IMG/VR virus record: IMGVR_UViG_2585427770_000004
Strand: one strand, 5' to 3'
Source of the DNA: a virus
Taxonomy: Duplodnaviria > Heunggongvirae > Uroviricota > Caudoviricetes
DNA: 40,296 bases
A program made the position numbers and the translations under genes. The notes under the pieces were generated by a model that saw only the letters and a program-made list of their open reading frames with translations, had not been told where the DNA came from and searched no databases. This document shows, piece after piece, positions 1 to 29,242 of this stretch. The number at the start of each line of letters is the position of its first letter. Position 1 is the first letter of the stretch.

Positions 1-1158
1 ATGCTCACCGTTAAGCAGATTGAAGCAGCAAAGCCGAAAGAAAAACCATACCGCCTACTCGATGGTAATGGCCTGTACCTTTATGTCCCTGTGTCAGGGA
101 AAAAGGTATGGCAGCTTCGCTACAAGATTGACGGTAAGGAGAAAATCCTGACCGTAGGAAAATATCCGCTTATGACTTTGCAGGAGGCAAGGGATAAGGC
201 ATGGACTGCGAGGAAAGAGATCTCGGCTGGCATCGATCCGGTAAAAGCGAAAAAGGCTTCGTCTAACAACAATTCCTTTAGTGCCATTTACAAGGAATGG
301 TACGAGCACAAGAAGCAAGTCTGGTCAGTAGGCTATGCAACTGAACTTGCCAAAATGTTTGATGACGACATTTTACCCATCATCGGCGGTCTTGAGATTC
401 AGGATATTGAGCCGATGCAACTGCTGGAAGTAATCCGCAGATTTGAAGATCGCGGTGCAATGGAGCGAGCCAACAAAGCCCGCAGAAGATGCGGCGAGGT
501 TTTCCGTTACGCTATTGTCACCGGAAGGGCTAAATATAACCCGGCACCTGACCTTGCTGACGCCATGAAGGGATACCGCAAGAAGAACTTCCCGTTTCTT
601 CCTGCAGACCAGATCCCGGCATTTAACAAAGCACTGGCAACATTTTCAGGAAGCATCGTATCGCTCATTGCGACCAAAGTTTTACGCTACACAGCCCTCA
701 GAACAAAAGAGCTTCGTTCCATCCTATGGAAGAACGTCGATTTTGAAAACAGGATTATCACCATCGACGCCAGTGTGATGAAGGGACGCAAAATTCATGT
801 GGTTCCTATGTCAGACCAGGTGGTTGAACTTCTCACTACGCTAAGCTCAATCACCAAACCAGTATCAGAGTTTGTTTTTTCCGGGCGCAACGATAAGAAG
901 AAGCCAATCTGCGAGAACGCGGTATTGCTTGTGATCAAACAAATTGGCTATGAGGGTCTGGAAAGCGGTCACGGATTCAGGCATGAATTCAGCACAATTA
1001 TGAACGAGCACGAATGGCCTGCTGACGCTATTGAAGTGCAACTGGCACATGCCAACGGCGGATCTGTGCGTGGGATTTACAACCATGCTCAGTATCTCGA
1101 TAAACGCAGAGAAATGATGCAATGGTGGGCGGACTGGATTGATGAAAAGGTGGAGTGA
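1..1158 (+). CDS. int: Tyrosine integrase (P4/IntS-like family)
   Basis: 385 aa; N-terminus MLTVKQIEAAKPKEKPYRLLDGNGLYLYV typical of P4-type integrases; C-terminal catalytic region with HGFRHEF (HxxR) and RGIYNHAQY (Tyr nucleophile). Confidence 0.9.
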   Translation: MLTVKQIEAAKPKEKPYRLLDGNGLYLYVPVSGKKVWQLRYKIDGKEKILTVGKYPLMTLQEARDKAWTARKEISAGIDPVKAKKASSNNNSFSAIYKEWYEHKKQVWSVGYATELAKMFDDDILPIIGGLEIQDIEPMQLLEVIRRFEDRGAMERANKARRRCGEVFRYAIVTGRAKYNPAPDLADAMKGYRKKNFPFLPADQIPAFNKALATFSGSIVSLIATKVLRYTALRTKELRSILWKNVDFENRIITIDASVMKGRKIHVVPMSDQVVELLTTLSSITKPVSEFVFSGRNDKKKPICENAVLLVIKQIGYEGLESGHGFRHEFSTIMNEHEWPADAIEVQLAHANGGSVRGIYNHAQYLDKRREMMQWWADWIDEKVE

Positions 1159-1375: not shown

Positions 1376-2803
1376 ATGGAGTTAATTATGTTCAGAAATC
1401 AATATGCTATATCAGACGCTTCACTAAGTGGTAACATCAGTCCTGACATGGAATGGCACAGGATGAGCATATACCTAGGAGAGGGGGCAGAGGTTTTCGC
1501 TAATGACAATTGCATTATCATAGGTAAAGTCGTCAATAGCTGCGACCCTAGCATGTCCCCTAATGATATAGCAGACGCTGTATCATCATGCGACAGCATT
1601 GAAAGTGTTTTTGAACTGACTGATGGGATGGCAGGAAGATACATAATCGCTTTCATCATAAACTCAGAGGTATATATGCTCACTGATGCTTGCGGATTCA
1701 AAAGAGCTCTATTTATGAGGTATAATGGTGCTAAAATAATAACATCATCTGAAAATTACGCCGCTCACATATTTGGGTTTAACATTGTCATTAATGAAGA
1801 TATAAAAGATATGATGCGGGATGAATCCTACAGAAGAAAAGAAAGCCCATGGTTTGGTTTGACTTCTCCAGATGAAAGATTCAGTTATTTAATACCAAAT
1901 CACTACCTGTATATAGGTGATTTTACGTTACATCGCATGCCCCCGCCAAAAATTGGTGGTGATGTAATTACCAGCGCATCATCAATGATAAAGAATACAA
2001 TTTTAGCACTTTCTGAAAGGTATAAGTTGATACAGCCTATAACGGCTGGCATTGACAGTAGGATTCTTCTTGCAGCATCTGAATCAGTTAAAGATAAAAT
2101 CGATTATTATGTATTTGGAGACGAAAACTCAAACCACGAAGATGTGTCCGTTCCTAAAGAGCTAGCAAAAATAGTTGGCGTAAATTTTAATGCAATCACC
2201 CCTCCGTCAGCACCAGATGAGTTCAAAAAGAAAATCGAAATGACAGTTCTTAGTGGTAGGGATTTGCCAAAAATAGATAATATATACTATCACTATAAAA
2301 ATTCTAACTTTGAAAAAGTAAACATCAATGGTAATGGCGCAGAGATATTCAGGTCGTATTATGGCGCGTCGATATTAGAGTTTAGCGCCAAGTCACTCTC
2401 TATACTTTCTGGAACTAAAAAATGGCCCATCATGGAAAGAAAGATTTATGATTGGCTAACATTAACTGAAGCCAAAAGATTTTCTCAAGAGAACAACATA
2501 TCAATTACCGACCTTTTCTATTGGGAGCAAAGAATGGCAATATGGGGGTCTATGTTCCCTTTAGAGCAAGATATCGCAATGGATGAGGTGTCGCCATTCA
2601 GCAATAGAAAGCTAATTTTCACAATGCTGAGCGAATCTTCAAGCAAACGTAGATCACCAGACTTTAAATCGGCAACTTTGTTAATTAATTTTATGGATGA
2701 CAGATTAAATAAAGTGCCTGTAAATCCAAAATCATCAAACCATATTATAAACTTTATAAAGGCCCATACAATAACTCAGTTAATTGTTAAGAAAATAATC
2801 TAA
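1376..2803 (+). CDS. Asparagine synthetase (AsnB)-like synthetase-domain protein without N-terminal glutaminase cysteine; cargo gene
   Basis: 475 aa, markedly AT-rich by eye; segment GRYIIAFIINSEVYMLTDACGFKRALFMRYNGAKIITSSE resembles the AsnB GATase-II fold, but the N-terminus is MELIMF with no Cys2; degenerate PP-loop ITAGIDSRILL in place of SGGxDS. Confidence 0.45.
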   Translation: MELIMFRNQYAISDASLSGNISPDMEWHRMSIYLGEGAEVFANDNCIIIGKVVNSCDPSMSPNDIADAVSSCDSIESVFELTDGMAGRYIIAFIINSEVYMLTDACGFKRALFMRYNGAKIITSSENYAAHIFGFNIVINEDIKDMMRDESYRRKESPWFGLTSPDERFSYLIPNHYLYIGDFTLHRMPPPKIGGDVITSASSMIKNTILALSERYKLIQPITAGIDSRILLAASESVKDKIDYYVFGDENSNHEDVSVPKELAKIVGVNFNAITPPSAPDEFKKKIEMTVLSGRDLPKIDNIYYHYKNSNFEKVNINGNGAEIFRSYYGASILEFSAKSLSILSGTKKWPIMERKIYDWLTLTEAKRFSQENNISITDLFYWEQRMAIWGSMFPLEQDIAMDEVSPFSNRKLIFTMLSESSSKRRSPDFKSATLLINFMDDRLNKVPVNPKSSNHIINFIKAHTITQLIVKKII

Positions 2804-2871: not shown

Positions 2872-4518
2872 TTAAATTATTGATAGCGTTCTGATTTCAT
2901 TCCCGACCGGTGATGTCATAACTATCCGTGTTACGTTAGCGCCGGACACCGTATACGTCAGAATTATGTTACCAGCGGTTCCTATATTAAAGTTTTGTTT
3001 AGCCCCTGATGAACCTATAGCTTTGGCATTCGTTAAAGTATACGTATTACCTGAGGTAAATCCTGTAGAAATTACAAATTGTTGATCAACTTTAAAAGGA
3101 ACTGTCATTGTTACGGATGTTGACTCGACAGTAACAAATGGCAGGCTAGGCTGTTTAACCCCCGTCACATCCCAGAACTCACAGTCGCGCACCAATGCTC
3201 GACTAATTAAACCGCGAGTTACAGGGAAGGTTGTCTGGTCCTGCGATAAGAATGCCCCAACGATTTGCACGTTATCGAGCGTAATATCGTGTACCGTGGT
3301 CCCATCTATAGGACTTAACGTTGGTGATGCACTCCAGAGTTTACCCCCCTTCATTTTGATACTCACAGGGGCATTTGGGTCTCCACCATAATATGCACGG
3401 ATACGCTCAAATTTACAATCTGTGAGTTCATAGCTGCCGCGTTGATTGGTTTCGAACATTGTGTAAGCCTCGCCAGGCACGCCATGTCTAACATTGCTGG
3501 CAACAACACGGGGGTTATGTCGGAACGATGCCGACGTAACAGAGAAAACCGGCGCGCAGACATCATTGATTATAATGTCCGTGGTATAACGCCCTGTAAC
3601 AGCGTTCTCAGAGTTACTCATATCCGAATATAGCGCTTTAAAACGGGAGAAGTCTATGTTAAGCCCAACCCCTGCGCTTTTCGGGAGGGGGCCAAAATCA
3701 AGCCCGTCAATAACAATTTTCTTAGGGAAGTAAAGAGTATCATCACGGCCCACAGTTATTAAAGTTCCAGGGTAAGTAGACACACTTCCTGGATAAACTT
3801 TAATATCTTTCAGGGTGATATTATTAAATAACGTAGGACTTATAGGCGAACCGCTACTCGGCCCTTGCCCGGCAGTGACGGCAGCATTGATAATGCCGTT
3901 ACCTGGAACGCCGTTACGCAAACCAGTTAGCTTGATATTCTCCATGTATAAATCACCATCAAAGTAACCACCCGCATCTGAGCGAGTTGCAATGATGTTT
4001 CCAGGCATGTCTGGCGATGAATTGAATGTTGAGTTTGTGACGTACAGGTCGCCAATCCCTGTTACAAGAACCCCGCTGCGGCCGATGTTGCAGTCATTGA
4101 TTTTTAAGTAGTTCTGGAATGGCATATGGAAATCAATCCGGCTTAAGTCGCACCTTTCAAATCGCACATTTGCACAATTATTGCTGCCAGTTGCGCCCCA
4201 CCCTTCCCCGTTTGCGGTTGCGTTTTTGATAGTTACATTCATTGAGTTACCCAACCCGATGGTGTAGGAGTAGATATCTCCCGTTCCTGTGAACGAGTCG
4301 GCAACCGAGGGCGCGAATAACCCATCAACGATGACATCGTAGCTTTCGTTGATTTCAAGACGGCTATCGCTGAAGTTTTGTGTTAGCGGCCTATTAATAA
4401 ATGAAGTATTAATCAGGCGAACTCGTGACGCTTGATTAATGTAAATAATTCGATAATTCTTTGTAAGACTTTCATCTATGGTTAGACCTTTAATAGTTTG
4501 CACGATTACGCGAAACAC
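2872..4518 (-). CDS. Orphan right-handed beta-helix protein (tailspike receptor-binding / polysaccharide depolymerase-like) lacking a head-binding domain
   Basis: 548 aa rich in G/N/T/S/V runs typical of pectate-lyase-like beta-helices (e.g. NGVPGNGIINAAVTAGQG); GTG start at 4516-4518 with an in-frame stop 10 codons upstream; no P22-type N-terminal adaptor; lies 78 bp downstream of the UmuD'-like gene on the same strand. Confidence 0.5.
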   Translation of the reverse strand: MFRVIVQTIKGLTIDESLTKNYRIIYINQASRVRLINTSFINRPLTQNFSDSRLEINESYDVIVDGLFAPSVADSFTGTGDIYSYTIGLGNSMNVTIKNATANGEGWGATGSNNCANVRFERCDLSRIDFHMPFQNYLKINDCNIGRSGVLVTGIGDLYVTNSTFNSSPDMPGNIIATRSDAGGYFDGDLYMENIKLTGLRNGVPGNGIINAAVTAGQGPSSGSPISPTLFNNITLKDIKVYPGSVSTYPGTLITVGRDDTLYFPKKIVIDGLDFGPLPKSAGVGLNIDFSRFKALYSDMSNSENAVTGRYTTDIIINDVCAPVFSVTSASFRHNPRVVASNVRHGVPGEAYTMFETNQRGSYELTDCKFERIRAYYGGDPNAPVSIKMKGGKLWSASPTLSPIDGTTVHDITLDNVQIVGAFLSQDQTTFPVTRGLISRALVRDCEFWDVTGVKQPSLPFVTVESTSVTMTVPFKVDQQFVISTGFTSGNTYTLTNAKAIGSSGAKQNFNIGTAGNIILTYTVSGANVTRIVMTSPVGNEIRTLSII

Positions 4519-4596: not shown

Positions 4597-4983
4597 TCAC
4601 TTCAGCGGGTAGTCATCAAACTCACCATAACGAGCATCGTTAATGATGTATGTGATTACGCCAAATATCGCATCAGGGCTCGTTCCGTCATCGTGCAGAG
4701 GTATAGCTTCCCTTCTTCCTGTCTGCAAATCTTCCAGGTGAACCTTGGGTGATTTTCGGTATCGCTTAATCCTCAGCTCACCTTCCATTCTGCAAACAAG
4801 TAATGAGCCGTCGCATGGTGATAGCGAAGCATCCACAACCAGCAGCGCGCCATTCAGGATACCTTCCCGGTAGTGCGTCGCACCCGCTCGCATGAAGTAC
4901 GTTGCCGCTGGCCTGCTTATGATGCACTTGTCGAGCGATATGCGCTCTTCAACGTAGTCTTGTGCTGGACTCGGGAATCCCAT
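4597..4983 (-). CDS. UmuD'-like protein (S24 peptidase fold; HumD-like analogue of processed UmuD)
   Basis: 128 aa starting MGFPSPAQDYVEERI, matching the region immediately after the UmuD Cys24-Gly25 cleavage site (GFPSPAADYVEQRI); the ASGDSM serine motif appears replaced (AGATHY); RBS GGAGGTG upstream. Confidence 0.7.
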   Translation of the reverse strand: MGFPSPAQDYVEERISLDKCIISRPAATYFMRAGATHYREGILNGALLVVDASLSPCDGSLLVCRMEGELRIKRYRKSPKVHLEDLQTGRREAIPLHDDGTSPDAIFGVITYIINDARYGEFDDYPLK

Positions 4984-5118: not shown

Positions 5119-6216
5119 TTGGAAATCGATAACAGTCCACCAAGAAAGAATAACCTTCAGTATATACAGGCGCTTAGGGCTATTGCAGCTATGCTTGTCG
5201 TACTTTGCCATGCAAGGGATTTTTTGAAAGGAACAGAATATGAATGGCTGGCTCAGCGATTATTTTGGCCTGGTGCATTCGGAGTTGATTTATTTTTCAT
5301 CATTAGTGGTTTTATCATAATTTATACGTCTCATAGCTACCAAAGCAATGATTTGATAAAGTTTATTAAAAAACGTTTCTTAAGAGTTTGGCCTCTATAT
5401 TTCATCATGACTATTGCATATATAGTCATTGTTAAAAATGTTGATTTATCTTTAATGCATGGGTTTTCATATAACCAATCATCTAGCTCATTTGAATTAA
5501 CAAACATAATCAAAGGTTTGCTTTTCATTCCACTAAACACTGAGTCACCTATATACTTTGGGCCTCCATCATTGTTCGTTGGATGGACCCTCAATTATGA
5601 AATATATTTTTATTTAGTTTGCGCCATTGGAATAGCGCTGGGGAAGTTTAGGTATACATTTTATATATTATGGTTTTTCATTACACTGTTAGCTTTGCCA
5701 TCTATTGCGGGTGTATTCGACAGACCAAAAATTGAAGGTTTAGGATATATAAATTTAACCATGCAAAGCCTGATTTGGGAGTTTGTCTTCGGTGCGATTA
5801 TTGCTATCCTATACAAAAGTGGTAACTTTTCAATTAGAGACAAAAGGATTGCAATACCATTAATTTCGATTGGAATCATAATCCCTGTATGGGCTTACAT
5901 AACACAGTTTGATGCTGGGCATGGGATTTTTCATTCAGGGAAATATTTTTGCATAATGTTTGCATGCTTTACTGCATGCTCTGACTACATACAAGACAAC
6001 ATCAAAATACCACGTATTTTCATCATGATTGGTGATGCTTCATACTCTTTGTATTTAGTTCATCCAATTACGTTTATATTATGCTTTAAGATGATAGATT
6101 GGCTTGGGATGGCTGATTTATCAAAAAGCTTCTCGTTTATTTTTATTGTATTTATAACATCTGTAGCTTTTGCACTACTAAGCTATAAATATATCGAGAA
6201 AAATATTCCAAGATAA
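5119..6216 (+). CDS. Membrane acyltransferase family 3 (Oac/OafA-like O-antigen acetyltransferase); probable lysogenic-conversion gene
   Basis: 365 aa, polytopic and hydrophobic; N-terminal motif IQALRAIAAMLVVLCHA typical of Acyltransferase_3; TTG start at 5119 with no in-frame ATG before the motif; AT-rich. Confidence 0.75.
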   Translation: MEIDNSPPRKNNLQYIQALRAIAAMLVVLCHARDFLKGTEYEWLAQRLFWPGAFGVDLFFIISGFIIIYTSHSYQSNDLIKFIKKRFLRVWPLYFIMTIAYIVIVKNVDLSLMHGFSYNQSSSSFELTNIIKGLLFIPLNTESPIYFGPPSLFVGWTLNYEIYFYLVCAIGIALGKFRYTFYILWFFITLLALPSIAGVFDRPKIEGLGYINLTMQSLIWEFVFGAIIAILYKSGNFSIRDKRIAIPLISIGIIIPVWAYITQFDAGHGIFHSGKYFCIMFACFTACSDYIQDNIKIPRIFIMIGDASYSLYLVHPITFILCFKMIDWLGMADLSKSFSFIFIVFITSVAFALLSYKYIEKNIPR

Positions 6217-6252: not shown

Positions 6253-8175
6253 TTAGGCAGAAATATTCACAATCCCCCATGTACTTCCATTCCACACCCA
6301 TTGGACAGTAGGGTCGGAAGGATATGTTGCTGGAGATGTTCTGTAGGACACCAAGCCGATTGGGAAAGAACCTGTGTTCTCTGTCACAGTAGGCTTTACG
6401 CTAGATCTCATTTTTACTTTCTCCCATCCGCAGAATACTGGAAGAAAGGTTCCGTTATACGGGCTAAAATACGCTCCTCCAACATAAGCGCTCATTCCGG
6501 ATTCAACTGTAATCCTTAATCTGTATGCTTTACTTTTGTCGTTGGTTGGCGCTGAAACTTTGTATAACTTCCACCCTCCAACACCCATATCGTAGAACTT
6601 ATTAACTGACATATAGATGGAATTAGTACCATCTTGGGCTTCTATAGCTATCTCAAGTGGTGTGTCGCCTTTAAAGTAAAAAGCTCCACGAATGAAACCT
6701 GTCTGTGTTTTAGTTAAATTTAGGGTTATTCTGCAAAGTTGAGATGCGTTAGTGACTCCAAACCATCTACCGCAGCCAGATGGTTCATTAGGGTCAGAAC
6801 CAACCTTTCGTTCGTTCGGTATAATTAAAAGGGAATAGTCAATAGGTGCTCCGTAGACTCCATCAATAACCGACCAATCTCCAGAAGGGCAAAGATTAGA
6901 ACCGGAGACACTGAACGTATCTCCTCCCTGTGCGCCTGCTGTAGGGTCTGTCCCTAATATGGTATTCATGGGGCTCATGGTTGAGGCCCAGTTACCATAT
7001 TGCACACGCGCGCCAAGTATGGTCCACGGCCCACGTATTTTCCCATTGCCCGTAACCTCGCCATACAAACCTATCACAACATTATGCTGATTTGGGGTGC
7101 TATTGTTATAGAGCAAATAATCGCCGCTTCCCGATGTGTCAAGACCTATAAATGTGTTTGCGTTCCCCTCATACGGAGCACCGGTCTGGCGACTAAAACC
7201 CGATCCAGTTATGATCAGACCACCACCGCAAAGCTGCTCAAATGTATTTTGATTTATAGATCCATCAGAGATGTCAATTATGAATCTGCCACCACCTGAC
7301 GTAGTACCTGTTTTGATGCGTACAAATTGATTCCAAAAACTCCCGCCACCCCATTCAACCAACCCAGGCAGAGTGTATGCGTCTGATGATAAAAATCTTA
7401 TATCGCCGGTCGTATCAATGTTCGAGATAATAGAAAACTGTAGCCCTCTAATGTATAACGATTTACATGAAAGGCCAGTTACATTTATAGATTTACTATG
7501 AAGGATTAGGAAATCCCCGTTAGGGATTCGGCCAACACAATCAACGTTACAGCGGATCACAAAGCGACCAGCAGAAGCATGAATGCCAGTCAGCTTGGTC
7601 ATATCAACGACATAATCGCCTGGAGGGATATGCAATGATTTTCTGTTTTTCCCATACTCAACTAATTGTGAATAATCACCGTTAGCATAATCCAATGCCT
7701 CACACAGTTTAGCAGTAACATCTGTACCATCCGGGAATACTCCCCATCCACGCACGTCTAAATCATCACGCCAGCGATAAATCTGCAATGCGGGATATTT
7801 GGTTGCCCCATCAGGGTCTTCAATCTGCTGCCTTAACTGATCTGGATCATACTTCAACACGTTTGGATAGTTGAACTGCTGTGTACCATAAGCATCGTAC
7901 ACAGCCATAGAATGGCCTTGCACGGTAACGAATTTGGCAATCTGTCCGTTATATACAGGATAACCAGCAGCGTTAATGATGATTGGTTGCGAAACAGGAA
8001 CGTGAGAGCCGTCTTCGTTCTCCACATAAACCTGAATCTGGTTTTCAGGATTTACCGGGTCAGTGTCAATTTTACCGATATAAATTTTGCCATTGGCAAC
8101 CGCTTTAAAAGAACGCGCCATAGTGAAGAGTTGCGAAGGCATGCTTACTACAACATTGGCTGTAATGTCTGTCAT
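6253..8175 (-). CDS. Tailspike protein (P22 gp9 family) with conserved N-terminal head-binding domain and divergent receptor-binding domain
   Basis: 640 aa; N-terminus [97 protein letters not shown] matches the P22/HK620/Sf6 adaptor domain as recalled; the remainder is beta-helix-like but unrecognised. Confidence 0.9.
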
Positions 8176-8275: not shown

Positions 8276-9154
8276 TCAGTAGTTATGTACTGAAGGAGGC
8301 AATTCTTTATTCTTAAGTCTCATCCATGCGGAAAGATTCGTTGGTCCGTCTGGCTCATTAATATCAACATCTCGTGTGTGGTTTATTAAAACGTCTCTCG
8401 CCATTCCGATAACATACGAGAATTCATGACCGTAGTCGTAGCATCTGCCGGAATAGTTCGATTGAATTTGTTTTAGCGCCGGATACAGTTCGCGGAATAA
8501 TGCCTGTGAGCGGTTGGCATAATCCCATAACCATACAAGGCTGTTTGCTTCTTTTGCAGAAAGCTCGTTGGTTTTCTTCTCTTGTTTGCCAATGAACTCA
8601 CCTTCAAGCACTACCCTGTGGATGTACTCTACGGCCAGCGGGATTTGTTCAATTGAAAGTTCATCAATGCTGTCAATACCAAAACGCTGATGAACCATAT
8701 TGTATGCATCGTCATAGCGAAGTCCTTTCCTTCCTACCAGCATGTTTACTGCATCGCGTAGCGGTGTTCTTTCCTCAACAGTGGTTTTCTTTCCTTTTAC
8801 ATACTCGCCATGTTTGCGAATTGAAGGCAGAACTTCTGCTGTTACCCACTTGCGGAATTTGTGCGGGACTGAACCTTTATTGACTGCATCGCGGCAGCGC
8901 AGAACCAATGTATACATACCTGATTCGCTCACAATGCTTAGATTCTGCTCACCACCAAGGGTGTAACTTAAAGTTACTCCCTTTTCATCGTCATCAAGTG
9001 CAGTAAGCGCCTTGCGTGAGTTAGTCAAATCTAAAGCATCACAAACATCTTTAGCTACAAACCACGGCTCACCGCACTTGTTGATGACGCGGATTTCACT
9101 GTCGCCGAATTTGAAGATGGTGAAATCGTTTTGTGCCTTTGCTATACTTTTCAT
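8276..9154 (-). CDS. ant: Antirepressor Ant (KilA-N/Bro-N type)
   Basis: 292 aa directly downstream of arc on the same strand; N-terminus [30 protein letters not shown] matches the antirepressor N-terminal domain. Confidence 0.8.
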
Positions 9155-9222
9155 GTCAATATTTCCTAATCCGATTTGTTGATGCCGAAGCCCTGACTGT
9201 TACAGCAGTTGGGGCTTCAACT

Positions 9223-25343: not shown

Positions 25344-25542
25344 AGCGTCTTTACCTTTTAGAAAGTGAGCCTGTCTCACAGAAAAGCCGCCCGAGAGAGG
25401 TCGCCACCTATAACGGCATTTCTCAGGCTCGCTTACTGAAAGGCTCTCGTTAATATGCGCGTGAGATGCGCTGTGAAATTCAGATATAAAAAAGCCCAGC
25501 ACCGCGAGGCTCATTAAATGGACTTTGTGATTTGCAAAAAAA

Positions 25543-25980
25543 TTATTTCAGGCATTGCGTCCTGATGTACTCCTGCAGGTAGTTAACCTGCGCGGTTATC
25601 TTGTCGATTCCACTTCTGAGACGGTAATAATTGAGTTCAGCATCTGCTGTAAGTCTTGGGCTTTCTCCATCGCCCATGCTGCTGGCTCCGGTCGTTGACT
25701 TTGCACAGGTGGCAGCGACTTGCAGGCGCTTACGACCAGCAGAAACATCATCACGGAGACTTTCGATAGTCGCGTTAGCATCAGCAAGCTCCTTTGTATA
25801 TCTGGCGTCGAGTTCTGCTACGTCACGTTGACGCTTCTGCATGTCAGCGATGATGGATGTGGCTTTATCGCGCTGCTCCTTGTAGGCGATGGCGTTATCA
25901 CGGTAATGATTAACAGCTCATAACAGGCAGACGATGATGCAGATAATCAGAGCGGAGATAATCGCGGTGACTCTGCTCAT
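25543..25980 (-). pseudogene. Rz: Rz (i-spanin) reading frame interrupted by an in-frame TGA at codon 21
   Basis: ATG at 25978-25980 overlaps the endolysin stop (ATGA); translation [38 protein letters not shown]... where lambda Rz has [11 protein letters not shown]; the stop is at 25918-25920; frame continues to 25543. Confidence 0.6.
25596..25787 (-). CDS. Rz1: Rz1 (o-spanin lipoprotein) embedded in the +1 frame of Rz
   Basis: 63 aa; lipobox LLVVSAC and proline-rich mature region, as in lambda Rz1. Confidence 0.8.
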
Positions 25981-26453
25981 ACCTCAATCTCTCTGACCGT
26001 TCCGCCTGCTTCTTTGAATTTTGAAATCAGACTGTCAGCCTTATGCTCGAACTGACCATAACCAGCCCCGGGCAACGAAGCCCAGATATTGCTGCAACGG
26101 TCGATTGCCTGACGGATATCACCGCGATCAATCATCGGCAAAGCGCCACGCTCTTTAATCTGTTGCAATGCCACAGCGTCCTGGCTTTTCGGAGAGAAGT
26201 CTTTCAGGCCAAGCTGCTTACGGTATGCATCCCACCAACGTGAAAGAAGCTGGTAACGTCCGGCGGCTGTTGATTTGAGTTTGGGGTTTAGCGTGACAAG
26301 TTTGCGAGGGTGATCGGAGTAATCAGTGAATAGCTCTCCGCCAACAATGACGTCATAACCATGATTTCTGGTTTTCTGACGTCCGTTATCAGTTCCCTCT
26401 GACCACGCCAGCATATCGAGGAACGCCTTACGTTGATTATTGATTTCCACCAT
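25977..26453 (-). CDS. R: Endolysin R (lambda-type lytic transglycosylase)
   Basis: 158 aa, same length as lambda R; [39 protein letters not shown] matches lambda R as recalled. Confidence 0.9.
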
Positions 26454-26760
26454 CTTCTACTCCGGCTTTTTTAGCAGCGAAGCGTTTGATAAGCGAACCA
26501 ATCGAGTCAGTACCGATGTAGCCGATGAACACGCTCGTTATATAAGCGAGATTGCTACTTAGTCCGGCGAAGTCGAGAAGGTCACGAATGAACCAGGCGA
26601 TAATGGCGCACATCGTTGCGTCGATTACTGTTTTTGTAAACGCACCGCCATTATATCTGCCGCGAAGGTACGCCATTGCAAACGCAAGGATTGCCCCGAT
26701 GCCTTGTTCCTTTGCCGCGAGAATGGCGGCTAACAGGTCATGTTTTTCTGGCATCTTCAT
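26437..26760 (-). CDS. S: Holin S (lambda class I holin with dual-start motif)
   Basis: 107 aa [39 protein letters not shown]..., essentially lambda S as recalled; Met1-Lys2-Met3 dual start. Confidence 0.9.
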
Positions 26761-27269
26761 GTCTTACCCCCAATAAGGGGATTTGCTCTATTTAATTAGG
26801 AATAAGGTCGATTACTGATAGAACAAATCCAGGCTACTGTGTTTAGTAATCAGATTTGTTCGTGACCGATATGCACGGGCAAAACGGCATGAGGTTGTTA
26901 GCGCAACCCCTTGCCACCCGCTTTCACGAAGATCATGTGTAGAAGGCCGCAGCGTAACTATCACTGATGAATTCAGGATAGCCAGTGGCTACGGCTCAGT
27001 TTGGGTTGTGGCGGCCGGAATCGAACCGGCTTCCATCGGTGCGCTGCCGATTGCAGTACGCGCGGCGGTCAGCTACATGACTAGTATTTTCACTGTCGCC
27101 TATCTGCTAGCTCGCCATTGAGCTTCACCACAACGATAAGAGCACTGCGCGGCACCTTTCACCAATTCCGCGAGGTCTGCGGGTTCAATGCTCTTACCTG
27201 TTGTGCAAACAAAAAAAGCCACCGTTGCAACTTAAGAGTCACTAACGGCAGCTTACCTTCTAATTATGG
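26761..27269 (-). promoter_or_regulatory. Late-operon leader between Q-like gene and S: candidate pR', Q-utilisation site and tR'
   Basis: Minus strand is largely collinear with the recalled lambda region upstream of S (GCACAACAGGTAAGAGCATTGA ... CACAACCCAAACTGAGCCGTAGCC ... CCTGAATTCAT ... ATGAAGATGCC) and has GGTGGCTTTTTTTG about 50 nt after the Q-like stop. Confidence 0.6.
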
Positions 27270-27788
27270 CTAAATGGCTAATTGCATGTCAAGGCTTTTA
27301 ACAGCAACATGCTTAACTTTCTCAACACGTTTACGCATTTTGAAAGCATTTTGCATCGGCTGGTATAAAACAAATAATGACGCTTTCAGGATGTCGTCAA
27401 TTTCGTTTCTACAGGTTGCCAGTGAAGGTTTTCTCCATCCCTCGCCACCACGTCCACACATCTTGCGTGGCTTTGCAGTCGCGTGATAGTAGGATGCAAT
27501 TGCTCGCTTAGATGAACCATGAGCGTAGTAGCTGAGGAGGATGCCAAAGGCTTTTTTGTCAATGTACATGACGGAATCGACGACCTGAGAAATCAACATT
27601 CCATCATCATCATTGCACATTGGCCTTGTCATAACTCTTCCCGGCTCTACGCTCTCCATGAACTTCGCTATTACGCTGCTCATGCGCTTTTCCAGACGAC
27701 CTGAATAAACCCATGCGCCCCACAGTTCAAGCCAGCCATTCAGCCACTCGTGCTGCTCTTTGGTGAGGTTTAGTTCTCTTATGCCCAT
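27270..27788 (-). CDS. Late-gene antiterminator Q-like protein (positional assignment)
   Basis: 172 aa immediately upstream of the late leader and holin and downstream of ninH/ninI; Cys-containing, basic C-terminus; not the lambda Q sequence as recalled. Confidence 0.5.
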
Positions 27789-28450: not shown

Positions 28451-28634
28451 CTCTTTCACTCCATCCGCGATGAACCATGAGAACGTCGTTGACGATGGCG
28501 TGCATTTTCCCGTCTTTATCATCAACGTATTTTCTGACCGTACCGCGACTACATTTCAGTCTGCGTGCTACTTCTGTCTGGTTTCCGTATGCTTCAACGA
28601 GCATGTCTGGAATGGTTTTTACTGAGAACGTCAT
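28428..28634 (-). CDS. ninH: NinH
   Basis: 68 aa [43 protein letters not shown]..., matches lambda NinH as recalled. Confidence 0.85.
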
Positions 28635-29242
28635 GCGGCCTCACTTCTGCTGTTTCGCAGTTTTTTAAGTTTCTGTTGATACTCCGCCTTGATGGCCCTG
28701 CACTCTTCGACAGTCCAGCGATGGCGGTTATGGTTTGATTCGATTTCGTCTACTGCTTCCTGCCCGATGCGGTTAATCAGTTCGACGCGATACGGAACGA
28801 GATTTCCGCTTTTGTGCTGGTTGCACACCACGCATTGCTTGTGAATATTGCGTTCATCAAATCGGAGTTGAGGCGCCGCAGCAGTTGTCCGGTAATGCCC
28901 GGCATCCCACTGAGCAGACGTGAGCGTTCCGCACGAGATACATGGTAAGTCGCGGTCTCTTTCTCTGATGAAGGCGTTTACGGCTTGTTGGGCTTGTTTA
29001 ATCCAGTAACTGCGGGGCTTTAAGGCGAGTTTTCGAATCTTAAGTTTATCTTTCTGTTTCTGCTCCTCTCGTCGCCGTTTCTTCTCTGCTGCTTTTTCCG
29101 CTTTTTCGCGTTCTTTGCTTCGTCGTTCGAGTGCTATCTTTGTTCCACACTCTGGAGAGCACCACCACTGATTAGCGAATGCAGGGTGAAACCATTCCCG
29201 ACATTCTTCGTTTTTACATCGTCTTCGCGCTGGTTTAGCCAT
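28631..29242 (-). CDS. ninG: NinG (Rap-family recombination protein)
   Basis: 203 aa [35 protein letters not shown]..., matches lambda NinG as recalled. Confidence 0.85.

Follow-up and report, generated by a model that had tools for sequence, protein, structure and literature searches.

An in-frame opal codon in the Rz i-spanin gene of a P22-like prophage of Escherichia coli ST5518

Gene content of the prophage

The stretch of DNA analysed here (hereafter the window; 40,296 nucleotides, or 40.3 kb) is a whole prophage of E. coli ST5518 O38:H26, inserted at the yfdC-dsdC site beside intS. The genes encoding the integrase and a TorI-type excisionase lie at opposite ends (Table 1), which we take to be the arrangement of the KplE1/HK620/Sf6 group at argW. 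The structural backbone is P22-like and comprises an Sf6-type small terminase, a large terminase, the P22 portal, a scaffold, the P22 coat, gp4, gp10, a needle and ejection proteins including gp16. Other P22-like backbone genes encode a tailspike with its head-binding domain, Ant with the sar RNA, a C2-type repressor, Cro, CII, a DnaB-type helicase, the nin proteins and Q. Rz apart, the replication, lysis, head and tail genes that were examined are full length, and the structural genes have the lengths of their P22/Sf6 counterparts and match the corresponding Pfam families. The other degraded items in the prophage are a truncated tailspike remnant and a tRNA-Thr relic.

The tailspike remnant is a 548-aa ORF (2872-4518, minus strand), 5'-truncated from an 843-aa tailspike and without the head-binding domain; it shares 99% identity with the tailspike encoded at L007:8872-11403, over that protein's residues 298-843. 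It is situated between intS and the live tailspike gene (6253-8175), and adjoins an S24-peptidase fragment (4597-4983) and an O-acyltransferase gene (5119-6216). This region looks like the scar of a replacement of the tailspike and O-antigen module. Directly after intS, a 475-aa ORF (1376-2803, plus strand) gave no Pfam or PADLOC matches; a relative (L008) has gtrA-gtrB-gtrC in this slot. PADLOC returned no significant matches for the cargo ORFs near int.

The sar antisense RNA (9156-9222, plus strand; RF00262, 65.6 bits) adjoins the gene for a P22 Ant-type antirepressor (8276-9154, minus strand), and together they form a P22-style immI region. Between immI and the gp16 ejection-protein gene, the segment 9726-10466 (plus strand) holds a gene for a Rap1a-like protein, from a type VI immunity family (PF18602), together with an unknown 129-aa ORF; the two probably constitute a moron. 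The tRNA relic (about 27003-27061, minus strand), which gives a sub-threshold Rfam tRNA/tmRNA-like match, lies between Q and S, where the relative ET151 has an intact tRNA-Thr gene of which only the 3' part of about 26 nt aligns to the window. A suppressor tRNA encoded by the prophage was considered and rejected: ARAGORN found no tRNA in the window, and the 3' relic of tRNA-Thr is the only trace between Q and S.

The Rz gene and the lysis cassette

The lysis genes follow the order S-R-Rz on the minus strand (Table 1). The ATG of Rz (25980..25978, minus strand) overlaps the stop codon of R as ATGA (GAGGT-ATGA), as the original prediction had proposed, and is preceded by GAGG at 5 nt; the start of Rz is thus coupled to the R stop. 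Direct translation gives TGA as codon 21 of Rz (25920..25918, minus strand). Here too the original prediction was exact in its coordinates, to which we add the strand that it had left unstated. Past the TGA the same frame continues as AVNHYRDN...TQCLK to the normal stop codon at 25545..25543, so that the full frame has 145 codons, the same number as in intact relatives, of which 124 are open after the TGA. When Trp is restored, the 145-residue product matches the Rz lysis protein family (PF03245; 126.8 bits, E 7e-37), which assigns the periplasmic domain to this family; the same match is recorded for the 99-aa Rz product. Identity of Rz to thousands of 'lysis protein' entries is 94-100%. Hence, the gene is recognisable as Rz by homology and by its position in the cassette, but its ORF is interrupted: the TGA parts a 20-residue anchor fragment from the remainder.

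Table 1. Features at the prophage ends and in the lysis region
Feature	Coordinates	Strand	Evidence or remarks
intS	1..1158	+	Abuts host fadL, mlaA, yfdC
TorI-type excisionase, 66 aa	40096..40296	+	Abuts dsdC, dsdX, dsdA
Q antiterminator, 172 aa, drives late (lysis) transcription	27270..27788	-	PF06530
Late-promoter-like site, TTGACA-18-CATAAT (11/12), at the end of Q, the place of lambdoid PR'	27263..27292	-	Match to consensus; putative function
S holin, 107 aa, lambda family, MKM dual-start motif, intact	26437..26760	-	PF05106 and TIGR01594
R endolysin, 158 aa, intact	25977..26453	-	ORF call, protein comparison
Rz (i-spanin) frame, 145 codons plus stop, broken at codon 21	25543..25980	-	Translation, PF03245, intact 438-nt 'lysis protein' in relatives
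20-codon N-terminal ORF, most of the Rz transmembrane anchor	25918..25980	-	Start overlaps R stop (ATGA)
Opal TGA at Rz codon 21, ancestral TGG (Trp)	25918..25920	-	Sequence and comparison with relatives
99-codon ORF from Met47	25543..25842	-	Called 'bacteriophage lysis family protein' (KEL04990.1 and others); without Shine-Dalgarno, without membrane anchor
Rz1 o-spanin lipoprotein, 61 codons, embedded in the +1 frame of Rz, intact	25596..25781	-	PF06085, HK75 Rz1
Terminator-like hairpin with T-run downstream of Rz	25486..25512	-	Homologous to annotated HK75 terminator

Damage to the lysis cassette is confined to Rz. The embedded Rz1, which the original prediction had also described as intact, starts 140 nt downstream of the TGA and has its own Shine-Dalgarno sequence (AAGGAG). 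It encodes 61 aa with the lipobox VSAC (...LLVVSAC20, with Cys20 as the lipobox cysteine), scores 71.4 bits against PF06085, and shares 97% identity with the Rz1 annotated in phage HK75; it is therefore an intact lipoprotein ORF in the +1 frame inside Rz, the embedded architecture of the family. The S protein is identical at 48 fetched loci, a count that includes the ST5518 clone. The R protein is identical at six fetched loci, namely the ST5518 clone and five others, three of which are from unrelated genomes. The Rz/Rz1 pair resembles that of lambda in its protein families (PF03245/PF06085), its embedded +1 architecture, its place after S and R, its transmembrane domain (TMD) at the N terminus and the Trp at position 21.

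At -9.0 kcal/mol, the hairpin downstream of Rz falls short of the annotated HK75 hairpin (-16.1 kcal/mol), owing to changes in its stem.

Origin and distribution of the opal codon

The Rz gene of IMGVR_UViG_2541047757_000009 is identical to the window Rz at 437 of 438 nt, and the sole difference is TGG at codon 21. Among complete E. coli genomes, the closest ones (MB06231 at 99.7%, ET151 and S10) have TGG as well, with an annotated 438-nt 'lysis protein'. The residue at codon 21 is Trp in 124, Leu in four and Cys in one of 129 aligned close homologues, and Trp in all 80 of 80 IMG/VR loci; these counts agree with the original prediction, which had pointed to Trp (TGG) at this position in lambda. 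Judged from these alleles, the TGA evidently results from one recent G-to-A transition that changed Trp21 to opal. We call it recent because no other change has accumulated relative to the IMG/VR Rz allele. In the ancestral Rz, a stop codon is created by 53 of the 1,305 possible single-base changes (4.1%), which are spread over 43 codons, and by nine of the 435 transitions. A Dcm hot spot as the cause was rejected, as the TGA site, read from the sequence, is outside a CCWGG context.

The TGA allele was sought in several collections. The GTDB species representatives contained no exact copy of a 38-mer with the TGA. A query of 71 nt, with the TGA at its centre, matched 4,249 of 5,426 complete E. 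coli genomes at 7,268 places; not one of these matches was identical, and the best ones differed by that one base. No full-length exact match occurred in 50,697 phage records, and only two IMG/VR contigs had TGA at Rz codon 21. As an unbiased baseline, we used 80 IMG/VR loci picked by the endolysin alone; the Rz ORF was complete (145-155 codons) in 79 of 79 loci among the endolysin matches listed. It was likewise complete in 10 of 10 loci picked by the downstream Rha-family gene. In 120 loci picked by the TGG context, we found one internal deletion and one possible mosaic variant in Rz. The in-frame stop in the window is not a chance feature: it interrupts a strongly conserved gene that nearly every comparator has intact (79/79 and 10/10).

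Some further Rz copies were inspected. When the Met47-start products of ten abundant alleles were looked up, one other N-terminally disrupted Rz appeared, in a Salmonella-type cassette (Logan SRR10015179_223; L307:1363-1368). Its start codon is lost (…CGTAAGTCAT… versus …CGTATGAGTCAT…), its Trp21 is intact rather than opal, and only one assembly contains it, where an assembly error may lie behind it. The one metagenome match to the TGA plus the downstream 17-mer (L306) was rejected as an unrelated chance match that is not Rz. Lambda-type Rz with 58% identity to the query was found in non-enteric assemblies, among them Kitasatospora, Oceanobacillus, Shewanella and Pedobacter (L116-L141 and others), mostly on contigs that were short or of about 48 kb; these copies are most likely contamination with lambda control DNA. 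Some lambda-type copies (L155, L159-L161) had frameshifts of the sort that long-read errors produce.

Over the 20.3 kb that were fetched, contig JOQH01000001.1 of assembly GCA_000713985.1 matches the window with 100% identity. This assembly is that of E. coli 4_203_08_S3_C2 (phylogroup A, ST5518, O38:H26), from a study of Tanzanian children (Richter et al. 2018, PMC6222053). The 99-aa truncated Rz product is called on seven NCBI contigs with the same neighbours, under four protein accessions and in at least four separately deposited assemblies; isolate names among these contigs include 4-203-08_S3_C2 and _S3_C3. Exactly seven ST5518 O38:H26 isolates, from three children and two dates, are listed in the study: two colonies from child 4-203-08 (18 Apr 2009), three from child 6-175-07 (7 Jul 2009) and two from child 6-537-08 (7 Jul 2009; PMC6222053 Table S1). 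Their names are 4_203_08_S3_C2/C3, 6_175_07_S4_C1-3 and 6_537_08_S4_C1-2. From the match of these numbers and the two isolate names seen, we infer that the seven contigs represent the seven ST5518 isolates. The TGA is also present in IMGVR UViG_2585427762_000004, whose identity to the window is 99.97% across 7.4 kb. In the collections searched, the TGA allele occurred in the ST5518 isolates and in their IMG copy alone.

The window and UViG_2585427762_000004 differ over these 7.4 kb at two positions only, 28987 and 29000, which are 13 nt apart in ninG (28631-29242, minus strand). One change is synonymous (Ile81) and the other is Gln86Lys. The pair could reflect either a small patch of recombination or variation among isolates of the clone.

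Effect on the i-spanin and alternative readings

We consider it likely that the window holds a genuine recent Trp21-to-opal mutation in the Rz gene of a complete P22-like prophage, that the i-spanin is lost or strongly reduced, and that the allele drifted under lysogeny. Lambda Rz is a type II inner-membrane protein with its TMD at residues 1-24; its periplasmic coiled coils bind Rz1, and nonsense alleles across that domain are lysis-defective (PMC5295617). The protein needs a membrane anchor, but the TMD is an anchor only, and an artificial TMD works (PMC5295617). In the window, translation of Rz would start normally, coupled to the R stop, and would end after 20 residues; the product would be a membrane-anchor fragment with no periplasmic coiled-coil domain to bind Rz1. 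Killing of the cell and degradation of its wall should still follow induction, since the prophage has wild-type holin, endolysin and Rz1. What should be abolished or much weakened is the final step, in which the Rz-Rz1 complex disrupts the outer membrane. Cells that lack either spanin subunit end as fragile spheres enclosed by the outer membrane, and need shear, or the absence of millimolar divalent cations, in order to lyse (PMC6139136). Spherical, unlysed cells are therefore predicted for this prophage when divalent cations stabilise the outer membrane and there is no shear, and virions would be released poorly into a still medium rich in cations. The most probable history is that the mutation arose, and then drifted, during vertical carriage as a prophage, when the lysis genes would not be under selection. 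A small fraction of ribosomes should read the UGA with Trp-tRNA(Trp), which would yield exactly the wild-type Rz, so that some leakiness is possible in place of a true null. The original prediction had offered inactivation of the i-spanin as one of its options; this is the best reading, with possible leakiness added. A single G-to-A change disables the gene in one host lineage, ST5518, relative to intact orthologues, and Rz is here best called a pseudogene or a leaky nonsense allele.

Another option of the original prediction was a sequencing or assembly error, in which case the true base would be G and Rz would be intact. We regard this as very unlikely, even though the assemblies are drafts of the Illumina era and the allele is unique to isolates of one project. 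The truncated ORF occurs on seven contigs, which match seven separately sequenced colonies from three children, and the TGA recurs in an IMG/VR contig with two differences elsewhere. Furthermore, the TGA site is not a homopolymer, and UViGs 2585427727, ...730, ...746 and ...779 have TGG in an identical 20-nt context. If these UViGs belong to the same batch as the window, which we assume from their IMG number range without proof, their TGG argues against a motif-specific artefact. Programmed recoding, in which the TGA would be decoded by design as a regulatory feature (selenocysteine, programmed readthrough or a frameshift), is extremely improbable. Its sole support would be that the frame stays open for 124 codons past the stop, but the frame is open because the change is a single recent substitution, which already explains it. 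The 91 nt starting 10 nt before the UGA fold no better than shuffled sequences (MFE -16.2 versus a shuffle mean of -17.6 kcal/mol, z = +0.47), and hence show no stimulatory structure. Rfam gave no match to a SECIS or readthrough element at or near the codon, even at E <= 1, no tRNA is present in the window, and the TGA is conserved in none of the relatives, where TGG or Trp prevails (124/129, 80/80 and the nearest relatives). Equally little speaks for reinitiation at Met47 (25842) that would supply a useful anchor-less Rz fragment. The original prediction had noted that a product from the downstream Met would be without its anchor, which is borne out, but its relevance is hardly credible. No in-frame start codon lies between the TGA and Met47, and no Shine-Dalgarno sequence is present within 20 nt upstream of Met47 (CCACATCCATCATCGCTGAC). 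The 99-codon ORF does exist and is annotated by gene callers; its product, however, would have neither signal nor TMD and so could not reach the periplasm, and lambda Rz needs a membrane anchor (PMC5295617).

More weight is due to leakiness, which the original prediction had also listed as readthrough of the TGA at a low level. UGA is the leakiest stop codon in E. coli, where Trp-tRNA(Trp) reads it in competition with RF2; in a K-12 reporter, readthrough amounted to about 2% at 37 C and to about 4% at 25 C (PMC10570021). The residue inserted would be the ancestral one, and 'null' may be too strong a word because readthrough would restore the native Trp. The readthrough product should work, since the Rz TMD tolerates artificial replacement (PMC5295617) and Leu and Cys occur naturally at position 21. 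The allele might thus be functional: misreading by Trp-tRNA(Trp) would give enough wild-type Rz to disrupt the outer membrane, perhaps with delay, and the spanin would be down-tuned but working. We think this unlikely. The rates come from K-12 reporters, that is, from another host and from a context other than CUG UUA UGA G, and the dose of Rz thus made might be too small. No stimulatory structure lies downstream (z = +0.47), and the allele is confined to one clone, while Rz is intact in the unbiased comparators (79/79 among the matches listed, and 10/10). When TGA plus the conserved 17 nt behind it was scanned for, a second Trp21-to-TGA change did emerge in a different Rz allele, that of UViG_2579779034_000011 (L185:1617-1619). 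This Rz differs from that of the window at 11 of 223 compared bases, some before and some after the stop, and the S and R proteins differ as well. Because of these differences, the change appears to have arisen at least twice, which looks like independent recurrence. The exact second allele was in no complete E. coli genome searched. The matched transition, Trp21 to TAG, had no occurrence in IMG/VR; two versus zero is not a significant difference and proves nothing, but hints at what would be expected if the opal were milder than a true null. Trp21-to-opal could even be a recurrent, tolerated, 'self-correcting' nonsense allele, with a few per cent of wild-type i-spanin and reduced or delayed disruption of the outer membrane. 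Such an allele could explain the same change in two unrelated Rz alleles without a matched amber, yet we hold this idea to be quite improbable.

The preferred reading, loss or strong reduction of the i-spanin by a recent nonsense mutation, was set against known systems. The window prophage resembles P22 in its backbone (portal, coat, gp4, gp10, gp16, sar RNA, ant) and in the order of its lysis genes, but gene 15 of P22, the Rz homologue, is intact, unlike the window Rz. Casjens et al. are said to have found, in 1989, that gene 15 is needed for lysis only with divalent cations. Lambda Rz nonsense mutants (e.g. Rz Q100am) are lysis-defective and give spherical cells in Mg2+ (Cahill et al. 2017, PMC5295617). 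The 34 nonsense positions of that study are in the periplasmic domain (PMC5295617); in contrast, the window allele is natural, is carried by a P22-like prophage, and has its stop inside the TMD, at codon 21, as an opal derived from Trp. The Rac prophage of K-12 (NC_000913.3 1423345-1423644) combines the pseudogene rzpR with an embedded rzoR that is an intact CDS, and thus also has a broken Rz together with an intact Rz1-type gene in a resident prophage. Rac is a heavily deleted cryptic prophage in which rzpR is a 300-nt remnant, whereas the window prophage is full length and its Rz is one base from an intact allele. Leaky UGA termination (PMC10570021) shares with the window the stop codon and the near-cognate tRNA, and readthrough inserts Trp; it is, however, a general property of translation, and nothing in the window sequence enhances readthrough (fold z = +0.47).

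A broken Rz with an intact embedded Rz1 is therefore an already known state, as in Rac of K-12, and the window presents ordinary prophage gene decay of a known kind, with no new mechanism. It opens no long-standing question; a mild thread is whether the recovery of the native residue by readthrough makes Trp-to-opal changes unusually well tolerated. The 99-aa 'bacteriophage lysis family protein' calls are the tail of an Rz gene cut by one nonsense codon. The base change is also a handy lineage marker for a clone that moved between three children. By gene content the prophage looks intact, yet its last lysis step is probably defective, and if ST5518 O38:H26 isolates are induced, spherical, unlysed cells would be expected in Mg2+.
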